A DNA stretch of 64,000 nt from an uncultured Nitrososphaeraceae archaeon (GCA_963765895.1 CAVXZB010000024.1:160001-224000); one strand, 5' to 3'; counted from the first letter of the stretch, positions 2,858-59,958 are shown. The notes: generated from the sequence alone by a model not told the origin. Program-made: numbers and translations.

Positions 2858-3476
2858 CTAAACCTTTGAGATACCTTTTATAAATAATGTGTGTAACCTG
2901 TCATCGACTAATTCCGGATGAAACGAAGTGGCAACAATGTTGTTCTGCTTCACAGCAACGATCTTGTCATTAAACTTCGCTATGACGCCCACTCCTATGC
3001 CAATCTCAGTCACTATCGGAGCTCTTATGAAGATGGCCTTAATTTTGCTTTTACCAATTAAGGGTATATTCAAATAGGTTTCGAACGAATCATTTTGTCT
3101 ACCAAATGCATTCCTTTCCACAGTAATATCCAATGCAGATAAAAATTTCTGCTTTGTCTCTCCTATAACTCGGTCGTGGGCTTTTCTAGAGAGTAGTATC
3201 ATACCTGCACATATACCCATTACGGACATACCTTCTGAGATACGTCTCTTGATAGACTGAAAAACTTTTTCTTGGACGGAAATAAGTGAACTCATTACAG
3301 TGACTCTCACCGCCTGGAATGATCAAGCCGTCTAGATTTTCAATGTCTTCAGAGTAGCGAACAACTGTGATCTCTCCAACTCGTCTAGCTTTCTTCATGG
3401 CAGATCTGGTACAGGAAATATTCTCTTCGATGTCGCCCTGTATACCTAGAACTCCTATATTAACAGAATTCCTCAA
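2858..3476 (-). CDS. pdxT: Pyridoxal 5'-phosphate synthase glutaminase subunit, one frameshift near 3303
   Basis: [16 protein letters not shown](T), [27 protein letters not shown] motifs split over ORFs 3186..3476 and 2858..3310 by one extra base. Confidence 0.93.
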
Positions 3477-8044: not shown

Positions 8045-8697
8045 TTAGTCCCACTTACTCCACGCGGCCATCCACCTATATGTCCACGTGTTTAGTTTAG
8101 CACCCAAAGCCGCAATTGGTACGGATAGCACTGCCCCCGCGCCTGCTCCTAAGGCTACAGGACTATTGTAGAATTTACCTACCTGAGGTTCAATTGGAGT
8201 CATGTATGGCGGCAATGTCGGACGGGGATACTTGAAGGCTACCTCTAATGGATCTCTGATCAGTAAAAGGTTGATCATATTGAACATTGGAAGAGATAGT
8301 CCTACTAGCGTTCCGCCAATTATTATAGGCAGCATGCTTATTCCTCCTAGTCGCCCAATAAGTCAAGTCTAATAACATTGCCGAGGGTATCCAGATAGGG
8401 TCCTGTAACGAAGTCGTATGGGTAGCCTAATGCGAACCAGGCGCCTTTTGCAACCCATGTATATATCGTCATAATGGTTGCATAATAAGTAGCGGTACCC
8501 GGCACGCCTGTAAACAGCATATAGTATATTGCCCCCACCACAAGCATTGTCGATTGAGATATAGAGAATACGACGAATGACGTCCATGCCCAGTCGGTGT
8601 AGAAGATATAGTCTCCAGCATTAATAGTCAATAGTGTGCTATTTACAGCAACTACTACTATGAAGAGGTAGTGCGTTGTGCGTCGAAGCCAGACCAT
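8045..8697 (-). CDS. amoA: Archaeal ammonia monooxygenase subunit A, two +1 frameshifts (about 8399 and 8327)
   Basis: MVWLRRTTHYLFIVVVAVNSTLLTINAGDYIFYTDWAW ... YRWMAAWSKWD; span of 653 nt equals the canonical 651 nt plus 2 inserted bases; ORFs 8347..8697, 8190..8378 and 8045..8335 join into full AmoA. Confidence 0.97.
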
Positions 8698-18839: not shown

Positions 18840-21421
18840 TTAGACTATGGCAAAAAAAGTTTCCTTGTAGTAACCAATACTTTCATGCCGAGTTACGGTT
18901 TGTCTTTGAAATATCCTAATTATTAGCGACCGTATCCTGCTTACACCCGGAATAGAAAAGCTTTTCGCAATAATCGTTGGGCAATTAAGCTTATCCAGCA
19001 TTGAAATAAAATGTTGATTACTAAAAAGATCGTATTTCCCAATGCTAGCACCCGTTACTAATAAATCAGCTTGAGAGGCGTTTATCGCAGAAAGTAGCAG
19101 TCTCGCGAACTGTTGGCTATTACTATCCGTCCTTTTCGACAAATAGATTTCGTTAAATTCTACTCCAATCTGTTCGAGATACTGTCTATGCTGATCTCGT
19201 TCTGTCAAAATATTTTCTATCTCATCTTTTCTGAATTCTGGTCCCTCTCGAATTCCATTGTATCGTTCTTCAAAATTACTATTCCTCGTACTGCTGTTCT
19301 TGTCGTTACTATGACTCTCTCCTTCCTCCCGTTTTTCTACAGATAACACGCTCACTTTGAACTTGCCAGAATGCTCAAGCCAACTAGCTGTCTTCAATAC
19401 TATATCGGAGTGGTTTTCGCTATCATACAAGACTACCAAATTTTTCTTGGTGGCCTGGGAAGCGACCACACTTTGCTGGTCTTCCTTCTCACGTGATCCC
19501 GGTTGCCTTGCCCCTAATTGCGGCTCAATGAAACGAGGCTCCTCAAGTACAAGGTCTTCATCACTAGTCCCGCCAGTCAGGATAGCCAATACATTGCAGG
19601 TTACTAGTGTTTGAAGGGCTTTATTGTTACGGTAGGTTTCAAAGTCCGTGATCATGAGATCGATCCCTTGCTCCTCGATTGTTGCTAATATCGCTTCCGT
19701 AGTGTCATGTGATATCCTTACAAGATAATGATTTAGAATGTTCTCTCTTTCTATCATAGTTTCCAACGGTTCGAAGGCTCTTCTTGCGGACTCTGTGAAC
19801 GCAACTCCTGCTGAAAGTGGCGTCTGGTGCGGAACTGTAATAATCCGCAAAATATTGATTTCACCCTCGTTCTCCTTCGCAACTCTTATTGCATATTTTA
19901 TCAGTCTATCTGGATTCTCAGGGGTGTAAGGGATCAAAATCCGAAAATCTTTCCTAGTAAGGTCACCCTCACTTGTAATTAACGGCGCATAGTGATCTAT
20001 CTCTCTCCTAAAAGTGTATATCCTATATAAGAAAAAGCCTACAGCAATCCACAATAGACTGATGACCCAGCTCATAGGCTGCGTAATTAACAGATAAATA
20101 GCAAGGCCTAGCTTTAAAAAAACCCCGATAATTGGAATAATGGGAAAGAATGGAGTCTTGAATCCATAATCTAACTTATCTCCATACATTTTTCTGATCG
20201 TGATAACTGAAATGTTTACTTGGGTAAAAAGCAGTAAAAAAATCACCCCTGATGCAATTGCAATTTGTGTAAGTGGAAGAGAATATGCCATAATGGCCAT
20301 TATTACTCCTGAAATTACTGTGGCGATATAAGGCGTTTTGAACTTGCTATGTATAGTGCTAAGCTGATGTGGGAGATTGTAATGCCTACCCATTGCAAAC
20401 GCAACCCTAGAAGAAGAGTATGTAGTGGCATTCAACGCAGCCAGACTTGATACAATGCCGCCTGCTAGAATAATGAAAGAGCCATAGGGTAAGAATAGTT
20501 GTGAGCCCTCATGATTCCTAGATCCCCATTTTCACCTATGAATTGCCATGGAGTATTGGCGGTTCCAATATTCTTGTGAAATATAGCTCCGACAGAGACA
20601 AACGCAACCAAACAATAAAGCAATACTACAAGTGTCAGAGAAATGAAAACTGCTCTAGGAATATTTTTTTTAGGATTTTTCACTTCTTCTCCTGTCTGAA
20701 CGATAATTTCATATCCTTCAAACGCAATAAATGTCAGACCCATTGCGGCTACTATGCCTCCTATGCCGTTAGCGGCGAAATTGGATGTAAAATTTGTATA
20801 CCAATCCGGATTGCCTTGCATAGTTAGTATACCAGCACCTATTAGGGCAAAAATAGTTCCGAGTTGAATAATCGTAATAATTATTCCTGCCTTTCCTGCC
20901 TCAGAAACGCCTTTGACATTAATATAAGTGAACGCAGCAATAGATAAAACAGCAATAAGTTTATCTATGGGAATTATGCCAAAAAGCGGATCATTACCTA
21001 CTACGCCTAACATCTTTAATAAGCTGTACTGAAATGAACCATATCCTACTGCATATAAGCTGCCAGCGACGATATGGGCAAACCATGCCATCCATCCGCT
21101 TATAAAGGCGTTAGGTCTGGGCAAACCTTCTCTAACCCACAGATATCCTCCCCCTGCTTCCGGCATAGCTGAACCCAACTCCGCATAGCCCATTGCCGTA
21201 AAAAGGGTGATAATTCCATTGATTACGAACGCTATAATTACTGCGCTTCCTGCCAGGCCTATAGCCGGGCCAACTAACACAAAAATTGCTCCACCAATCA
21301 TCCCCGCTATGCCGATCATAATAACATCCACCAAACCCAATGTACGGACCAAATGATGTTGTTGTGGATTTTCAGACGTCGAGGATCTATCGCCATCGCC
21401 GGTATAATGACGGAAAGCCAA
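18840..21421 (-). CDS. APC-family amino acid permease fused to C-terminal Usp-like domains, frameshift near 20503
   Basis: GMIGGAIF, YAELGSAMPEAGGGY, FEGYE, EEVKNPKKNIP; restoring one base gives GIMRAAQLFLPYG...LNATTYSSSRVAFAMGR joining both ORFs; tail with EAILATIEEQGIDLM (Usp-like). Confidence 0.9.
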
Positions 21422-45929: not shown

Positions 45930-46022
45930 ATAAAGGATATGACTTTCAAACGATCGTAGTATACGAACCAATAAAGGATATGACTTTCAAACGATCGTAG
46001 TATACGAACCAATAAAGGATAT
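45930..46022. repeat. 41-bp perfect tandem duplication (about 2.3 copies)
   Basis: ATAAAGGATATGACTTTCAAACGATCGTAGTATACGAACCA at 45930 and 45971, plus ATAAAGGATAT at 46012. Confidence 0.95.
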
Positions 46023-46315: not shown

Positions 46316-46771
46316 CTAGCTTCTTTTCATTCGAGAATCTTCTTTTATAGTCCGTATAAACTCTTCCAATTTCTTTAGACTTTCAGGATGCAGGTGATGC
46401 TCAATTCCCTCCGCATCCCGATTGGCTATATCAACAGTTACACCGATCATTTTGAAGAATTCTGCAAGAAGGCCATGTCGTTCCCTAATGCTCTCTGCAA
46501 CTTTTATACCCTCGTTAGTTAGGCTTATGCCTCTATATTTTTCATATTTTAGGTGCCCACTCTCCCCTAGCCTTTGTACCATTTTTGTAACGCTTGGAGA
46601 GCTTACGTTAAGGTATTTGGATATTTCAATAGTTGTTGCATATCCTTTTTGCTGAATTAGCTCAAATATTACTTCTAGATAATCTTCCATTCTATCTGTT
46701 CTATCTTCTTTTTTTGAGTTATTAGCGTCACGAATTGATTCTAATCTAGTTCCTTTAGTCGTAGGCTCCAT
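46316..46771 (-). CDS. mntR: DtxR/MntR-family metal-dependent transcriptional regulator
   Basis: EDYLEVI, LNVSSPSVTKMVQRL, YEKYRGISLT, RHGLLAEFF, DAEGIEHHL. Confidence 0.92.
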   Translation of the reverse strand: MEPTTKGTRLESIRDANNSKKEDRTDRMEDYLEVIFELIQQKGYATTIEISKYLNVSSPSVTKMVQRLGESGHLKYEKYRGISLTNEGIKVAESIRERHGLLAEFFKMIGVTVDIANRDAEGIEHHLHPESLKKLEEFIRTIKEDSRMKRS

Positions 46772-47237: not shown

Positions 47238-48221
47238 TTAGTTCCCGCAACTATCTTGTTTAATATGACCTATGAAGGATTCAAGATCTGCTGTTGCAAG
47301 GCAACATACTTTATCTCCTGCGCCGTAGTAAACAAACAACCGTCCGTCCAACACACATCCACCGGTGGGAAATACCACATTGTTAACATCTCCGTATAAT
47401 TCATACGATTCCATTGGTTGCAATATTGGTCTCCTAGTCCTAGCAAGTATCTTGTTTGGTCTATTCAAATCCAGAAGCGCGGCACCGGCTCTATAAACTT
47501 TATCATTACTTACTCCATGATAGATAACTAACCAACCATATCTCGTTTTGATCGGTGGTGGCCCTGCTCCGACCTTTAATTCCTCCCAGTCTGACTTAGG
47601 ACTTATAAGGAGAGTGTATTTGCTACGGGCCATCAAAGAGTTCCCTTCCCCAAGCCAGATACTCGGTCTATCTACTCCATAATCCTTTCCAACCCATCGA
47701 CTTGGTCTATGTAACGAAAAATACTTATTTGTTCCTTTTCCACTTATTGAATGTGCATCAAATTTATGTGGGAAGAAAACAACATCTTTGTCGTCATCGG
47801 TTTGTTTTGTTATGGTACCTAATCTGGTAAAAACACGATAATCACTCGTCGTAGCTAATGCTGTTAAAGTCTCTGGACCTTCGCGTACATACTTGGAAGG
47901 AACTACATAAACAAGGTAATCCCTCTGACCAATCTTTACTAAACGAGGATCTTCTATACCGAATCTCTCGTATTGGACATTAGGAGAAATAGCAACCTCA
48001 TTACGTCTAACAAACGTATAGCCATCAGTGCTGGAAGCATATCCTACTCTTGAAATATAGTCTTCATATTCGCCAATAGCACGATACAACATATGAATTC
48101 TAATCCCGTCATATAATACTCCGCAGTTAAAAACTGCCTTGGATTCCCACCAGTTATTATTATCAGGACTCAAAATCGGATTTTTACTATACCTCTTTAG
48201 GACCATCTCGTTTGCAGACAA
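47238..48221 (-). CDS. GH130 glycoside hydrolase/phosphorylase (DUF377)
   Basis: NPIL, VFNCG, MLYRA, GIEDPR, DKD, GAGPPPI, YHGV, VVFPTG, YYGAGD. Confidence 0.92.
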   Translation of the reverse strand: MSANEMVLKRYSKNPILSPDNNNWWESKAVFNCGVLYDGIRIHMLYRAIGEYEDYISRVGYASSTDGYTFVRRNEVAISPNVQYERFGIEDPRLVKIGQRDYLVYVVPSKYVREGPETLTALATTSDYRVFTRLGTITKQTDDDKDVVFFPHKFDAHSISGKGTNKYFSLHRPSRWVGKDYGVDRPSIWLGEGNSLMARSKYTLLISPKSDWEELKVGAGPPPIKTRYGWLVIYHGVSNDKVYRAGAALLDLNRPNKILARTRRPILQPMESYELYGDVNNVVFPTGGCVLDGRLFVYYGAGDKVCCLATADLESFIGHIKQDSCGN

Positions 48222-48649
48222 GACAAATCCATAAGTAAATCTCTGGTTTTATTAACCTACGCACTTTAGATGGTATAGAATAAGACTCTTCAAAACCATT
48301 ATCCGAGGTACTATCTACCCTAAACAAAAAGTGCCCTGAAATTGAGCTGAAGTTACATCTACTGAACTGAAGTGATTTAGGTTGCCTTACTTATGTCATT
48401 GACATTGCTAGTGCTATCGTATAATAGTGATATCATCTAACAGCTGCAATGTATATACAGTTCTTCGACAATTTGCATCGATTCATGCCAAGGTACTAAA
48501 AACAACATCTTTAGTTGATTGTCCTACTGTATATATGCTCCGAAAAATCTGTTGTGAATGACGACAAAAATGGGGGGAGAGTAATGTGGTTATCGTATGC
48601 CATTCAGTGCCGATTCAACCTAATTTAATCATCCGAGCCTTATCGACCT

Positions 48650-48859
48650 TTATGATTGGTGATGGTGGTGATGGTGGTGATGGTGGTGATGGTGGTGATG
48701 GTGGTGATGGTGGTGATGGTGGTGATGGTGGTGATGGTGGTGTCCGTCTGCATAAGCCAAGTGTTCAGTCACGATTGGAGCCGTTGCCATCAGTGCTATC
48801 GCGGCCATCAAAGTAATAGTTGCCATCAGTGCTATTTTCCTATCACTATTTTTATTCAT
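48650..48859 (-). CDS. Secreted poly-histidine peptide (signal peptide + DG + His28 + QS)
   Basis: Basic n-region, hydrophobic h-region, AYA-D cleavage site, then 28 His; TTTATAAG about 35 nt upstream and a T-run downstream. Confidence 0.7.
   Translation of the reverse strand: MNKNSDRKIALMATITLMAAIALMATAPIVTEHLAYADGHHHHHHHHHHHHHHHHHHHHHHHHHHHHQS
48657..48742. repeat. 9-bp tandem repeat (GATGGTGGT)n encoding the His tract
   Basis: About 9 perfect units. Confidence 0.95.
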
Positions 48860-49059
48860 ATTTCTGCTAGATACTCTTTTTATTTACAATCTTATAAACA
48901 AAGTATACAAATACCTGCATTGGAACCCAGAGATGGAATTTGCCCTGCACTAGTCGAATATAAAATCTCGCTCAACCTACTCCGTCATTAAATCAAAATG
49001 TTGTTTAGCAATGAGGTGTGTCATCATTAACGAGTAAAATAACAAGCCATAAAAATGAA

Positions 49060-49500
49060 CATGAAACGGTCCCTCTTGGTCCTAGGAACGATGGTGGTGT
49101 TTACCAGGGATACTCGCATATCAGGCAAGTAAGCGAGTAAAAGTGATTGTATTGAACATCGTAAAGTTGGACAATAAAACAGTAATAGCTAAGGAGTTTG
49201 GTAGTCAAAGGATTTGATAAAGCTAGCAAACGATACCGTCTCACTCACATCTTCAGGATCACCCAACAAATCTGGCTATGTTCCATCCATGGGTAATGCT
49301 ATCGAGATAATTAATACTGGAAGTAGCAAAAGTAAAAACTTTACCGCGATGTACTCTAAATGTTGAAGGTACACAAGGAAAAATGGTCAACAATCTCTAA
49401 AGCCTCGTCTCAGCAGCTACTTTACACCATCTAACACAACCAACTCAGGTAACTGGTTAATTTACATGAAACTTGGCTACCCATATTGAGAACGTCCTAA
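49060..49500 (+). pseudogene. Remnant of a thaumarchaeal exported-protein gene
   Basis: Fragments VPLGPRNDGGVYQG, LAYQASKRVKVIVLN in shifting frames. Confidence 0.35.
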
Positions 49501-50152
49501 TAACCGAATTGTGCTAGATTAAAGCCGCAATTTAATGACATTTTTTGTTTGTATTTAAAAATATAGAAGACTATTTTGACCGTTGCTTAGACTTACCATA
49601 GTTACTGGTTATTATTTGTGCCTCGAGTCTTTTTTACAAAATCTCGAGTGAGTGTGATAGGTTCAATTTTAAGAATTTATAATAGAAATGAGTTTCTACC
49701 GGCCTGAATATTATACTAGAGGTGTTTCATTAGAAGAAATTTCACATCTGGCCAATCCACACTTTTCCGTTTCCATTAAGTTTATTGAGAGTCTGTTAAT
49801 TGCATTTTCGACAGAATAGCCAAATTGATTAGATTGTTCGCAATAAATCCCATTTCTAACAATGCGAATCATAGGGGCCTATTCTAAACGTTACTTATGT
49901 TATCAATAGTAAAGTTTTTGACATATCATCTTATTGGTAATAAGATCATTTTTCGCAGTAGGCCCATCTGACTTATAGTACAAACATTAACCAGTTCATA
50001 TCATATCAGATCTACTGACCGACTCATTTACCAAATTTCCGGTAGTACTTTCTATATATCTATTTTGCTAATGAAAATACTAACTAACCAAACAGTTAGT
50101 TGATATATAATACTAACTTATATGTCAGAAAAAATGCTATATTATTTATTAA

Positions 50153-51598
50153 TTGGACAATACCGTTACTGCAATACGTAAAGAAAAACTAGTAAGAATC
50201 AATGGTGAACGTGATGATATTATTTTCGAAAGAAAAATGGACGATATTACTTCGGGCTTGCAACCGGAATATTCTAGGTTACTACATGATATATCAGAAG
50301 AAAACGCACTCACAATAGGAAATTACATTCAAGCATTAAGAATGGAGGTCAATCCCTCTGATCATTACAGAGGCGATGTAATTAAACTACTATGTACGTT
50401 CTCTAAATTTAATAATAATCATCCTTTTAGCGCTATAAGTAGGGATGATATAATTTCATATCTAGAAAGTTACCGCAAACCAGAGACATTAGATCCCATG
50501 CATAGATGGATTGAAACTTACAATATATACCGAATGCATTTGATTAGATTTTTAAGATGGTTATATTATCCTGACATTGAACCAAGGAAACGACCAAAAC
50601 CAGAAGTGATTCAGAATGTATTACAGCTCAAGCGAAAAGAACAATCAATTTACAAGCCTACAGATCTTTGGACAGTTGAGGATGATCTGCTATTCCTAAA
50701 GTATTGCCCTTCTAAAAGAATAAGATGCTATCATGCTATGTCTCGTGACACAGGCTGTAGGCCACACGAATTATTGAAGTTAAGGATAAAAGACGTCGTA
50801 TTCAAAGCCACCAGAAATAGACAATATGCAGAAGTTTTGGTCAACGGAAAAACAGGAAGCAGATTTATCCCTTTAATAGACTCGATTCCATATATCAAAG
50901 ATTATTTAAATTATGAACATCCGCAGTCAGCAAATCCAAACACGATATTTCTATGTGGAACACGTAAGAGCTTAGGTAGGATTCTGAATATATCATCACT
51001 ATCACGGATTTATGGTATATATAAGCATGAATTATTTCCAAAGTTATTAAACGATCCAAATGTTCCATCGGAAGATAAGATGATGATTGAAGAATTACTG
51101 AAGAAACCATGGAACCCGTACGTACGAAGACATAGTGCGTTGACAGATAAATCCAAAATACTCAAAGAACATACTTTACGTCAATTTGCAGGTTGGAGCA
51201 CGAATTCCAACATGCCTCAGAAATATCTTCACTATTTTGGAAATGAAGCAAGTGAAAGCTTGTTAGAAGCATATGGTATAGTTACAAAAGACCAGAAATT
51301 ATCAGATGTACTAAGACCAAAGCAATGTCCTAATTGCAATGAACCTAACAAACCTGATAGCAAGTTCTGCGCGCATTGCAGGATGGTTTTGACATATGAT
51401 GCCTATAACGAAAGGTTAGATGAGCAGAAGAAGAAGGAAGATAAACTGGCAGTTATAGAAGACCGATTCAATACTATGCAGTCTCAGATGTGTACGCTAA
51501 TTACAGCTCTTGGAAATATGGATGGCAATAATAAAGTCCAATTTGCAAAGCAGTTGTATCACAGCGGAATATATGAAGTAGATAGTGTCACTATCTAA
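50153..51598 (+). CDS. Tyrosine recombinase/integrase with C-terminal Zn ribbon
   Basis: DTGCRPHEL (Arg), GKTG (Lys), PYVRRHS, FAGW, KYLHY (Tyr), CPNC...CAHC. Confidence 0.92.
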   Translation: MDNTVTAIRKEKLVRINGERDDIIFERKMDDITSGLQPEYSRLLHDISEENALTIGNYIQALRMEVNPSDHYRGDVIKLLCTFSKFNNNHPFSAISRDDIISYLESYRKPETLDPMHRWIETYNIYRMHLIRFLRWLYYPDIEPRKRPKPEVIQNVLQLKRKEQSIYKPTDLWTVEDDLLFLKYCPSKRIRCYHAMSRDTGCRPHELLKLRIKDVVFKATRNRQYAEVLVNGKTGSRFIPLIDSIPYIKDYLNYEHPQSANPNTIFLCGTRKSLGRILNISSLSRIYGIYKHELFPKLLNDPNVPSEDKMMIEELLKKPWNPYVRRHSALTDKSKILKEHTLRQFAGWSTNSNMPQKYLHYFGNEASESLLEAYGIVTKDQKLSDVLRPKQCPNCNEPNKPDSKFCAHCRMVLTYDAYNERLDEQKKKEDKLAVIEDRFNTMQSQMCTLITALGNMDGNNKVQFAKQLYHSGIYEVDSVTI

Positions 51599-53219: not shown

Positions 53220-53630
53220 ATGGTTGGACTCATTACTGTTGAAGAGAAAATCAGAGTAGTAAAGGAAACCTGGTCGACCGGAAGGCTTATTGATGAACTA
53301 TTCTTGGAGCTCGACAATGCAAAGGAAATAGATGAAAAAGGTGGCATATCCAAAAGGAAGTATAGTAACGATACTAATTCCATTACAAAGTATGGGGCAT
53401 TACATACCATTTTTAATCTATACAAATTGGATAGAATACCAAATCAAGGGATCGTTATTGTCTATCATGGTACGAGGCCAGCCAATGATCTGGGCTTTAT
53501 TCAGAAATATGAAACATATGATTACTCAGAAAATGAAGCTAAAAAAATTCATCAGCATAAATTCGATTCTGAGTTAATAAACCGACAAGTCGATTCTATT
53601 CTCGGTCAAAAACTGGGGTTTGCACATTGA
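53220..53630 (+). CDS. Hypothetical protein, possibly eRF1 domain-1-like
   Basis: Stop overlaps the primase start (TTGA); weak resemblance to the aRF1 N-domain by eye. Confidence 0.55.
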   Translation: MVGLITVEEKIRVVKETWSTGRLIDELFLELDNAKEIDEKGGISKRKYSNDTNSITKYGALHTIFNLYKLDRIPNQGIVIVYHGTRPANDLGFIQKYETYDYSENEAKKIHQHKFDSELINRQVDSILGQKLGFAH

Positions 53631-55984
53631 GTATGGATAATGTGCTAGCTATGATTGCTAAGTATGGTCCGGATCCTGAATCCTCCTCTTTTGCTTCTCG
53701 TCACGATGCGATAGCATATCATAATATTTGGGCCGATTTTTGGCGTTACAATATAGGAGTCAACGTCATACCATCTGATACTAAAAATAAGAAACCAGTA
53801 GTTCCATGGTTTGGATGGCAAAGCAAAGCAATACCAGAGTCATTGCATCGCCAATGGAAAACAGAAGGCCTATTTTCAAATGGGATTGCTGTTATATTGG
53901 GGAAAGTCTGGCACAGACAAGATCTGGCTCATTATTACCTGGTTGGAGTGGACGCGGATAACAAGAAAGCTATTGACGAAATTTGTAATTATAATGGAGA
54001 GGAATTTGCTGCGAAAACCTTAGTTGAACAGCATAGAGATAATCCCGCTAAAGCTCATTTTTATTTTTATGCTACAAGACCGATTAAAGGTAAGAGTAGC
54101 GATAATGCTCTACTAGCCCACAGGCTTTCGACCAACGAAATACCTGCAATAGAGATCAAAAGCCTTGGCAGCCATGGGATTCTGTATTGCTCCGGCTCTT
54201 TTCATAAAGATGGATACAATTATGAAATTATAGGATCACGTAAACCAGCAATATTAAATGAATTACAAACCGCAGAGCTAGAAAACCACTTTAACAATAT
54301 TTTTAACAAATATATGATAAGTTATCTCTCCGTAGGTAGCGCAGATAATTCAGCAAGTGCAAAAACAAAGTTACCAATAGAAGAGCTTTTCAAGCCAGTC
54401 TATAAAGTGCTGGAGGGCCATAATCGACATGAGGCATTGTTACGGGTGATAGAATCACTTACTTCGCGACCGTAATATTTTCTCACTGGAGGAAATAAAA
54501 CAGTTATCGAAGAACTGGAACAACACTCATTGTATGCCGCCACTTGATGATAGAGAGTTGGAAGGACAATGGAAATGTGCCCTAGAATTTATTGCGCCAA
54601 AACAAAGGCAATCATCATGGCAAAACGATATTGGGTCCCAAGATCACAATCAAAGCATTACTGCTGAAGAAAGACAACAGGAACAAAATTCGCATCCAGT
54701 TAGTGAACTAGCCGAGAAAATAATGTCTCGGTATATCTTTAAAACACTAGCAGACACTGAAGAGATGCTGTATTACAGAGACGGAATTTATCATTCAGGT
54801 GGAGAACAAATAATCAAGACAGAGCTGGAAAAAATTGCCGGTTATTCGATTAAAATTAATCAGCGAAATGAGATTATAGCTCATATAAAGTACCGGACAA
54901 TTGTAAACAGGGAAGAATTTGACAAGAATGAGTCAGTTATTAATGTGAAAAATGGTTTATTAGATATAACGACTGGAGAAATTAGGCCACACAAGCATGA
55001 TTATTTGTCGATCATCCAGTCGCCAGTGACGTACGATCCTCGCGCTACCTGTCCCCGAGTAATCAAGTTCCTAACTGGAGTAAAACAAGAGATGGGATTT
55101 CAACTCTTGTAAGATTATTTGGGTATTGTCTATACAGGAGCCCGCGTTACGAGAAAGCAATTATGTTAGTTGGTCCAGGCAGAAATGGCAAAAGCGTTCT
55201 CATCAAACTAATTGAAGCTTTAGTAGGAAAGCATAATGTAAGTCATGCAAGCCTACAGGAATTGTTAGGAGATAGGTTCGCAAGTGCAGATCTCAATTGT
55301 AAACTTGTTAACGTTTTCGCTGACCTTGAAGCGGATAAACTAGTAAATACTGGTAGGTTCAAAGCCCTTGTTTCTGGTGATAGTATCCGGGCACAACGGA
55401 AACACCAGCAAGTCTTTAGTTTTAGAAACTATGCCAAACTGATTTTTAGTACGAATAAGATACCTGAATCTATGGATAACAGTTATGCCTATTATCGTAG
55501 ATGGGTGATACTGCCTTTCGATAGAATTTTTGAAGGTGAAGAAGAAGATACGGATTTGATAAGTAAACTAACCACCGAAGAAGAATTGTCAGGTCTTCTG
55601 AACCTGGCACAAAGGGGCTTGACTAAACTCATTAAGGAAGGTGGTTTCAAAGAGACACCGGTAGAAAAAATAAAGCAACAGTATGAGCATAATGCCAGTA
55701 TAGTAAAGCAGTTTATTGAGGAGCAATGCGTTATTGATCTAAATAAACCGGACATCTGCATTATGGCAACCACTTTGCGGGATTCATTTCAAGAATTTTG
55801 TCGGACAAGGCATACTAAAGTGTTAGAAGAAAACATATTAGGAAAAGAGTTGGCACAACAAGGCATACTAAAGGATCGTATAATGAAGAACAAGAAACGG
55901 GAATATTACTATGTAGGAATCACAACAAAACAGGCATTAAGAGGTGAAAATGAGACGTTGATCTCTACCTCTACTACCTTCTAG
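53627..55984 (+). CDS. Prim-pol primase / PriCT / D5-like SF3 helicase fusion, frameshifts near 54463 and 55085
   Basis: GVNVIP..NKKP, GVDAD, HFYF (prim-pol); WNNTHCMPPLDDREL (PriCT); VINVKNGLLD (D5_N); GPGRNGKS, FKALVSGD, IFSTN, YRRW (SF3). Confidence 0.9.
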
Positions 55985-58360: not shown

Positions 58361-59126
58361 ATGCCATGGTGGTTTTGAATTTTCCTCCGACGCACATATC
58401 ATTTTCGGTAGCCAACGCTTCCCAGTTCGAAGCAAACGCCAGCCGATGATAGACATTCCAAATGACATTAACCGGATCATAAGAAAGCAAGACATTATTA
58501 TTAATATAGCTGCACGCGCTTAAGGTCTGCAAATATAGTAAGATATTCAGACCATTATCTTCAAGAACAGCAGCAACATCTGCATTATTGATGCGATCGT
58601 TTACAAGGAGATAATTTTTCTTTCACCCCCTTCACAGAAAGAAATTTTCCCCCTAGTAGTCAGAAAGTAAATGAAGTAGAGCATAACCTAAGCTTTATCC
58701 TATCACACCAGAATTCGGCAGTTTCCGATAACTCATTGATCCACACAGAACCGAAGGTCCTCTAACCTTCAGACACTATAACCTTACCAACAGATATCTA
58801 TTGGTATGGGAATTACATTGTCCCACACTATCAAACACTGTTCCACATTATAGTTACAGGTCTTGACGACGAAATGGCACTTCGTTTCTAATCAACTGCA
58901 ATTAGAATCTTCTTCTATAAATATTAAGCAGAATGTTCAATAACATCTATCACTACAATTGTGACATGTGGAGTAAGGCCAAATCAATTATCGTAATGCC
59001 AACAGTCATGATGGCAATAGTGCTAAATTCTGTGATTGTAGAGTTAAGAAATTCTGGATATAAGGTCGTAACGGGTTTCGTGGAGGAATCAAAGAAGGGT
59101 TTACCACCAAGGGCTGAAAGTAAATA

Positions 59127-59958
59127 ATGAATAAATTTATTATTTTATTTTTGATTGTTGGCTTGGCAGCTTGTATGGTTTCGGTGGGTGGTTTTAGTGT
59201 GAGTCTGGTCGAGGCTAAGGATTCAGATAGTGGCGGCGACGATAGTAGTGATTCAGGAACCAGTGATAATGGTGACAATGGCGGTAGCGACAGCGGTTCA
59301 AGCGATAATGGTGACAATGGCGGTAGCGACAGCGGAAGTAACGATAATAGTGATTCAGGTGGCAGTAGCACTAGCGGTGTAGATGATAGCGATAATGCTG
59401 TCACTGGTGATAATAGTGCTCCTACCGATGATACACCAGCCCCAACACAAGACGACACCCAAACGGCAAACAGTGACACGGCACAAGTTACGCCAATAGC
59501 ACCGGCAACGACAACGACAACAACGCCAACAGTGCCTCAAGAAGACGCTGCTAAACTTCCAGATTGCCATGGCAAGTCTAAAGACTGTGTGACAATGCGG
59601 CGATGTCTGTCTAAAAGGCTCACGTGCGCATGAATGCGAATGCGATGGTAAACATGACCCTAATTGTCAAAAGCACAGTCCTATATGTGATAGTATCCGG
59701 GGCTGTGAAGGTTTAGGAAACTTTTGCCATTCCCATAAGGATGCAGGTGTATGTAAGCCATTTAACCCGTCACACCCTGACCATGGTACTAAGGTCATAG
59801 TCATACACAAAACCAAGACAATTCATAAGAAAGACTTTACTAGTATACCAACCGTGTTCGTTCCAAATGTCGGTCTAGTTCAACCGTTGAATTGTAAATT
59901 AAATCAAGATAATGGAAAAATCGGATGCGAGTTCGTCGTAATAAAGGTGATTAACTAA
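59127..59958 (+). CDS. Secreted protein: acidic S/G/D repeats, T/P linker, Cys/His-rich domain; frameshift near 59596
   Basis: Signal peptide; after the shift GDVCLKGSRAHECECDGKHDPNCQKHSPICDSIRGCEGLGNFCHSHKDAGVCK...NCKLNQDNGKIGCEFVVIKVIN*. Confidence 0.7.
59265..59335. repeat. Intragenic 32-bp direct repeat with 39-bp period
   Basis: GATAATGGTGACAATGGCGGTAGCGACAGCGG at 59265 and 59304. Confidence 0.9.

Follow-up and report, generated by a model that had tools for sequence, protein, structure and literature searches.

A small gene for a putatively exported poly-histidine peptide in an uncultured Nitrososphaeraceae archaeon, with a repeat-encoded tract that differs in length between relatives

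The stretch of DNA analysed here, hereafter the window, spans 64,000 nucleotides (nt) from an uncultured Nitrososphaeraceae archaeon (GCA_963765895.1 CAVXZB010000024.1:160001-224000) and carries, on its minus strand, a 69-amino-acid (aa) open reading frame (ORF) whose product would be composed of a signal-like N-terminus, an Asp-Gly pair, 28 consecutive histidines and a two-residue tail. This small ORF and the elements within and around it are arranged as follows:

48650..48859, minus strand: 69-aa ORF (signal-like N-terminus, DG, His28, QS, stop)
48749..48859, minus strand: part coding for a signal peptide or signal anchor, 37 codons, ending in A-Y-A
48786..48835, minus strand: 18-bp periodic repeat within the signal region (Tandem Repeats Finder)
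48743-48748, minus strand: codons of the DG dipeptide
48659..48742, minus strand: His28 tract, (CAC CAC CAT)n, a perfect 9-bp tandem repeat
48650-48658, minus strand: codons for QS, and stop
48640..48657, minus strand: a tail reading N-H-K-G-R-stop, offset by 1 nt from the His tract of the window and so read in the next frame
48884..48898, minus strand: archaeal-type promoter, with TTTATAA (48892-48898) in the block ATAAGATTGTAA (48884-48895)
48566..48649, minus strand: 3' region with about 75 conserved nt, closed by a T5 run (48566-48570) that is likely an archaeal terminator

The layout put forward in an initial annotation of this DNA, namely a 69-aa ORF with an AYA-D junction and a mature part reading DG-H28-QS, is present throughout, and the 9-bp tandem repeat proposed to encode the tract was recovered without a single mismatch (48657-48742, period 9, 9.6 copies, 100% matches, score 172 in Tandem Repeats Finder, the second-highest among 27 rows for the window). 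The additional repeat proposed inside the signal region is an exact 17-nt pair (48783-48799 and 48819-48835), included in the 18-bp period listed above (2.8 copies, 65% matches), which gives the product a hexapeptide periodicity. Histidine occurs 29 times in the ORF, 28 times consecutively and once in the signal region, and the six frames of the window contain no second run of at least four His. Pfam, scanned with the 46 window ORFs of at least 90 aa and with the peptide ORF included, has no family for the peptide, NCBIfam gave two sub-threshold compositional matches and nothing above cut-off, and recognition in the ESM Atlas was low with no usable match. Broadly speaking, this is a young gene made mostly of two tandem repeats.

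Relatives were sought among proteins and among genomes. A word-based protein search with residues 1-40 yielded five candidates and four matching clusters (P0001-P0004), all with the same start, the same signal, the D-G pair and then an in-frame His run, followed by KDR (P0001 and P0002), NHKGR (P0003) or EDR (P0004). A genome search anchored on the downstream GH130 glycoside phosphorylase gene gave 42 related loci, and among the 18 archaeal ones that we compared (L001-L018) the peptide gene lies upstream of GH130 in three: L001, which is the locus of P0004 (GH130 98% identical to that of the window), L003 (78%) and L004 (78%), the last on a contig that starts 12 nt ahead of a tract of 43 His codons, with a stop directly after it. 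Locus L002, which reaches only 73 nt upstream of GH130, is not informative on the peptide gene; the other 14 show neither a His run at the site nor a tblastn match to the signal, four of these with less than 610 nt of upstream flank. A search for a longer fused form matched none of 16 candidates, and a search with a fifth sequence (P0005), which is the same contig as L003 and hence not independent of it, found only itself. The initial annotation had allowed that relatives might lack a His-tract homologue; such homologues were found, and we regard the small gene as real, young and restricted to one Nitrososphaeraceae sub-clade.

The length of the tract is where these relatives differ most visibly: five His in P0001 and P0002, seven in P0003, five in P0004 (L001), 28 in the window and 43 in L004, a roughly nine-fold range, with lengths compared between clusters rather than within them (the P0003 cluster holds 29 member sequences). 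At 96% DNA identity between L001 and the window in this region, the tract still differs nearly six-fold (five vs. 28 His). Identity of the GH130 genes separates the loci into two groups, one with the window, L001 and L002 and the other with L003 and L004, and each contains one long and one short form, which implies at least two independent length changes. With a perfect repeat in a coding region and a copy number that differs among close relatives, the gene qualifies as a coding tandem-repeat (contingency-type) locus, and since the unit is 9 bp the frame is kept at each slippage step. The earlier proposal that metal-binding capacity varies through slippage therefore holds for its first half, as lengths do vary between relatives (5, 5, 7, 28, 43) in the way that slippage predicts; the change in metal capacity itself we infer.

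Both the TATA box and the T-run that had been claimed for the gene are present and conserved in relatives. The TTTATAA box is centred 36 nt upstream of the ATG, and the block around it is conserved in the alignment of the window, L001 and L003; it has a single mismatch-free occurrence in the window, and with up to one mismatch four matches vs. 1.06 expected, the other three not located at metal genes. The T5 run lies 79 nt beyond the stop, and the intervening 3' sequence (about 75 nt) can be aligned between the window, L001 (2353-2440), L003 (2255-2345) and L004 (145-235), i.e., across both sub-clades. Positions 48571-48649 on the minus strand also contain a CGGCAATGA-like block shared by the two sub-clades. 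This 3' region showed neither a supported RNA structure nor a conserved ORF, and Rfam recognized two tRNAs in the whole window and nothing at the peptide locus (the sigma-70 promoter and intrinsic-terminator scan uses bacterial models and is uninformative for an archaeon). With a weak consensus fold of the 3' region (-3.68 kcal/mol) and folding of the whole transcript that is not unusual (z = +1.25), readings of the locus at the RNA level are unlikely.

At the protein level, promoter, ORF, 3' sequence and T-run remain alignable among the window, L001, L003 and L004, at a divergence that leaves the other 400-600 nt of spacer up to GH130 unalignable with L003 or L004. Nucleotide identity between the window and L003 is 77% in the signal region and 78% in GH130. 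Across 34 codons of the signal region compared between these two, 16 are identical, eight differ by synonymous changes only (including two TTG-to-CTA double changes) and 10 by non-synonymous changes, all of them conservative, which corresponds to a low ratio of non-synonymous to synonymous substitution rates (dN/dS = 0.19, with dN 0.147 and dS 0.770). The sense frame is the sole stop-free frame of the six in the window as in L003, and its ratio of synonymous to non-synonymous differences is the highest of the six (8:10 vs. 16:74 for the other five pooled, Fisher p = 0.026). Tract codons are exclusively CAC or CAT in the window, L001, L003 and L004, the codon set having been computed for the tract of L004, and the short tracts differ from each other only at the third position of the His frame. 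Given these conserved elements, the low dN/dS, the stop-free frame, the restriction to CAC and CAT and the unstructured transcript, the ORF is very probably a real protein-coding gene; as judged from the aligned codons, its N-terminal signal region is shown to be under purifying selection, and the reading under selection is signal plus poly-His.

The N-terminus has, by inspection, the n-, h- and c-regions expected of a class I signal peptidase substrate. Its first eight residues are net positive (K3, R7 and K8 vs. D6), a charge that is lost in L001/P0004, the hydrophobic core extends over about 22 residues (Kyte-Doolittle 19-residue maximum 2.16), and the c-region reads T-E-H-L-A-Y-A before D-G, so that A-Y-A occupies positions -3 to -1 with small uncharged residues at -3 and -1. 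In relatives, three larger secreted proteins whose genes lie close by have the same long leader, which ends in AYA followed by QG, AFA followed by QG, and AFA followed by HH. On these features the product is predicted, with reasonable likelihood, to be exported, and cleavage probably follows AYA, which would release an almost pure His peptide of about 32 residues, expected to be disordered. In all four close forms (window, P0001, P0003 and P0004) the putative cleavage site is followed by Asp-Gly-His.

The genes flanking the peptide gene are, in order of position:

46316..46771, minus strand: DtxR-family, MntR-like regulator (137 bits vs. an NCBIfam cut-off of 138)
47238..48221, minus strand: GH130 glycoside phosphorylase gene (Pfam 4.2e-57; below the NCBIfam cut-off), the downstream synteny anchor
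48964..49400, plus strand: pseudogene of a secreted protein, divergently oriented, recognized by tblastx (intact form about 210 aa)

The same-strand GH130 and DtxR/MntR neighbours noted at the outset are thus in place, within 2.4 kb, the MntR-like score falling just under its cut-off. Regulator and GH130 occur together in the window and in L001, L002, L003, L004 and L018, and in L018 they do so with the peptide gene missing, which suggests that their adjacency to the peptide gene is probably incidental and that GH130 is probably not functionally linked to it. Matches to AmoA and AmoB in the window (Pfam) identify the host as an ammonia-oxidising archaeon (AOA), as had been assumed. On the other side, the pseudogene has tblastx matches in three frames, in-frame stops and a lost N-terminus, its homologues being intact in one frame in L003 (997-1632, minus strand) and L018 (6500-7129, minus strand); neither Pfam nor PDB has a match to this protein. 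A 306-bp stretch of the window from the peptide promoter to the next conserved block (48913-49218) is missing in L001 but partly present in L003 and L018, which points to a deletion in L001. At the site of the missing gene, L018 encodes a 156-aa secreted protein (8227-8697, minus strand; no Pfam match) whose leader ends in AFA followed by His-His.

Farther out, a perfect 41-bp tandem repeat (45930-46022, 2.3 copies, 100%) about 300 bp downstream of the MntR-like gene has the top Tandem Repeats Finder score of the window (186), and a 39-bp tandem repeat (59265-59353, 2.3 copies, 88% matches) sits within two overlapping ORFs, 59006-59479 on the minus strand and 59127-59633 on the plus strand, neither with a Pfam match. 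A probable integrated mobile element extends from about 50106 to at least 56000, with genes for a tyrosine-integrase-like protein with zinc ribbons (50153-51598), a prim-pol (53627-54475), a D5_N protein (54534-55112) and a DUF5906 protein (55163-55984). Synteny with L001 ends at 50105; there is no tRNA nearby, and its right end was not found in the window.

Several genes of the window and of its relatives appear split or interrupted in the assembled sequence. The amoA gene (8045-8697, minus strand) lies in three, with profile positions 1-86 in ORF 8347-8697, 84-108 in 8328-8420 and 109-183 in 8045-8335, and the pdxT gene (SNO glutamine amidotransferase, 2858-3476, minus strand) is divided over two ORFs that overlap in different frames (profile 1-45 in 3186-3476, 45-186 in 2858-3310); these are either assembly indel errors or broken genes. 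An amino-acid permease gene (18840-21421, minus strand) appears likewise divided, with AA_permease_2 positions 1-260 in 20465-21421 and AA_permease_C plus Usp in 18840-20435, possibly by a frameshift or a stop. The GH130 gene of L018 (9995-10973) has 11 stops on straight translation and its ORF ends after 228 aa, so that it is a frameshifted gene or carries indel errors of a metagenome-assembled genome.

The His run, 5 to 43 residues long among relatives, points to a metal-binding peptide, one probably placed outside the cell. In this mechanism, transcription would start from the gene's own TATA promoter and end at its own T-run, and the N-terminal Sec-type signal, with its positive n-region, long hydrophobic core and A-Y-A site, would carry the C-terminal part across the membrane, where signal peptidase would cut after AYA and probably release the peptide of about 32 residues. 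Located in the gap that separates membrane from S-layer, or outside the cell, this array of imidazoles could then act as a ligand of divalent transition metals (Cu, Ni, Zn), and 9-bp slippage, which always keeps the frame, would quickly alter how many residues bind. Cleavage between AYA and DG would further create an Asp-Gly-His N-terminus that fits the sequence rule of amino-terminal copper and nickel (ATCUN) sites for Cu(II) and Ni(II), i.e., a free N-terminal amine plus His at position 3 (as given in PMC9472272). We consider an exported or surface-held metal-binding peptide with slippage-variable capacity to be, tentatively, the best reading of the locus, and a physiological metal-binding role to be possible rather than probable; export, the cleavage site, metal binding in vivo, the identity of the metal and any fitness value of tract length are inferred. 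The term metallophore used in the initial annotation is not supported, since it implies release and re-uptake and the window has no transporter, biosynthetic or uptake partner; a buffer, sponge or hand-over station would be the more fitting role. Nothing in the genomic context favours Cu over Ni or Zn.

Several observations weigh against the peptide as an exported metal binder. No metal transporter, chaperone or maturation gene was found by Pfam in the 64-kb window; the peptide promoter (48860-48930) has no inverted repeat or operator palindrome of the kind expected in an MntR/DtxR regulon, with one weak palindrome only upstream of the regulator; and the Cu-limitation promoter motif of N. viennensis, as given in PMC7785015, is not at the peptide promoter, its three window matches (vs. 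2.97 expected) all lying away from the gene. In the sub-clade of L003 and L004 the sequence is G-G-D/N-His, with His at position 4, so that the Asp-Gly-His spacing is not kept. A profile built from five sequences matched only P0003 and P0005 among 1.84 billion representative proteins, and the more distant L018 lacks the gene at the syntenic position although its full 10-kb flank is present. Such a narrow distribution would suit a weakly constrained orphan gene, i.e., a real gene in whose tolerant C-terminal tail a microsatellite, neutral or slightly deleterious, has expanded into the long tract, with no adaptive metal function and with loss under way in several lineages. In the same direction point the L003 form (P0005), where one G fewer in a G-run ahead of the tract leads the signal frame into the Ile/Thr reading, and L001 (P0004), where two 1-nt deletions, 15 nt apart, have reshaped the N-terminus at the cost of its charged n-region; the other 16 gaps between the window and L001 over about 8 kb are all intergenic and leave the flanking genes indel-free (a 17th gap, at the junction of tract and tail, is not counted), which suggests relaxed constraint. 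A tract in the PPS or TTI frame had been named beforehand as an outcome speaking against the peptide: it occurs in part, as TTI in L003, and the tract of the window is in the His frame. The tails are variable too (KDR, EDR, NHKGR, QS or none), the 100% perfect repeat implies a very recent expansion, and the adjoining secreted-protein gene is a pseudogene in the window, as expected of a decaying region. We nevertheless rate this orphan-gene explanation as rather unlikely overall, in view of the dN/dS of 0.19 in the signal region, the retention of promoter, ORF and terminator next to a spacer that can no longer be aligned, the presence of at least five His encoded by CAC and CAT only in every copy, and long tracts that arose or persisted in two sub-clades. 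Given its 22-residue core and Kyte-Doolittle maximum, the signal may instead stay uncleaved, as a transmembrane helix (N-in/C-out) that tethers the His tail to the surface, where it would soak up metal like a sponge or pair with a membrane protein. The positive residues on the N-terminal side only and a weak compositional resemblance to the transmembrane helix and His-loop of RcnA (17 bits) agree with such an anchor, but the seven-residue polar c-region, the Pro upstream and A-Y-A at -3 to -1 form a classical signal-peptidase pattern, the larger secreted neighbours have the same leader type and the RcnA score is far from its cut-off of 195 bits, which makes an uncleaved anchor unlikely.

The remaining explanations question the tract or the gene itself. 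That amoA lies in three frames and pdxT in two means that the assembly may carry indel errors, so the exact repeat count and tail should not be taken as exact; moreover, the phase of the window's tail differs by 1 nt from that seen in close relatives, with QS-stop in place of NHKGR-stop (its TTI frame does end in NHKGR-stop), and the near-identical L001 has only five His. The true tract of the window could on this evidence be short or in another phase, like that of close relatives, but an independent contig from another genome (L004) shows, complete with both flanks, a tract of 43 His codons built from the same 9-bp unit, the local 8 kb shared with L001 has no indels in large genes, and 1-nt indel errors do not create nine perfect 9-bp units, leaving an artefact of this kind improbable. 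Still less credible is a chance ORF over an intergenic microsatellite: the product is very short and repeat-built and has neither a Pfam family nor a usable ESM Atlas match, yet purifying selection, a sole stop-free frame, a conserved promoter and terminator and four protein clusters from other assemblies with the same start, signal and in-frame His all speak for a gene. As for regulation, the short forms, short ORFs with five to seven His codons close to their end and a T-run after them, superficially resemble the bacterial hisL leader, whose translation senses charged tRNA-His and controls downstream transcription. A hydrophobic signal of 37 residues, conserved and under purifying selection, would be superfluous in such a leader peptide, the next gene downstream, 430-600 nt away across an unconserved spacer, is GH130 and not a his gene, there is no conserved alternative hairpin, and tracts of 28-43 codons are unsuited to a sensor; we give this explanation almost no weight.

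If the exported His-array peptide is what the gene makes, it would be a simple candidate for extracellular metal handling, and one of few archaeal genes in which repeats drive variation in capacity. A bolder version, in which one AOA sub-clade exports a near-pure poly-His peptide with an ATCUN N-terminus for extracellular capture of Cu(II)/Ni(II) in the service of copper metabolism, tuned by 9-bp slippage (5 to 43+ His), seems to us a long shot, although if true it would be the first peptide-based system of metal acquisition to be described in AOA, and no longer secreted His run would be known from nature. The dependence of AOA on copper is heavy (PMC7785015), and soil AOA copper acquisition is modelled, according to that study, only from CopC/D, multicopper oxidases and ZIP permeases, with no chelating peptide known there. 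Should the tract be a tolerated microsatellite, the locus would still mark variation among strains cleanly. Annotators and assemblers may also take it as a caution, as illustrated by the L004 contig, which begins just before its tract.

Among known systems, simple-sequence contingency loci share with the peptide gene a perfect tandem repeat inside an ORF and a copy number that varies between close relatives, but the 9-bp unit here allows a change in size, not on/off switching. No contingency-type locus in AOA, and no description of such a peptide in AOA, was found in the literature searched, most subscription journals being outside that search. The resemblance to the Ni/Co efflux protein RcnA, whose NCBIfam model aligned over a transmembrane helix plus His-rich stretch (17.2 bits vs. 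195), is compositional only, and RcnA differs in being a polytopic transporter. Helicobacter Hpn and Hpn-like, and the His-rich tails of UreE, HypB and SlyD, are low-complexity His-rich metal stores or buffers, and in being very His-rich and of low complexity the peptide resembles them; unlike it, they are bacterial, cytoplasmic and of mixed His/Cys/Gln composition and have no signal peptide, whereas the peptide has an N-terminal signal and no family match in Pfam or NCBIfam. Methanobactin, the chalkophore type of methanotrophs, is a ribosomal peptide that serves an organism with a copper-dependent monooxygenase, and it is this concept that the two would share, but methanobactin requires modification by MbnB/C and dedicated uptake and binds Cu through oxazolone-thioamide groups, and none of these genes is in the window. 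Nor does the N-terminus look like the leader of a ribosomally synthesized and post-translationally modified peptide, resembling a Sec signal instead.

Closer in working are the secreted His-array metal binders, poly-His being a ligand of Cu(II), Ni(II) and Zn(II). The likeness to ATCUN peptides (albumin N-terminus, histatins) lies in the Asp-Gly-His start that putative cleavage after AYA would expose, although His is at position 4 in L003 and L004, and ATCUN is a motif rather than a family. The pHpG (poly-His-poly-Gly) peptides of vipers, as described in PMC9472272, are secreted, contain 6-12 His, act as ligands of Cu(II) and Zn(II) and are believed to serve as metal buffers; like the archaeal peptide (here by prediction) they are short, ribosomal and secreted, with an unbroken His run after an acidic N-terminus, and some have an ATCUN start. 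They differ in being animal peptides cut from a larger precursor, with a poly-Gly tail and a proposed role in inhibiting venom metalloproteinases, and there is no homology; the archaeal peptide has 28-43 His in some genomes and no poly-Gly, its tract being followed by zero to five residues and a stop. As far as such comparisons reach, the peptide belongs to none of the known families tested, and in its working it would stand closest to the secreted His-array metal binders, the pHpG and ATCUN peptides.

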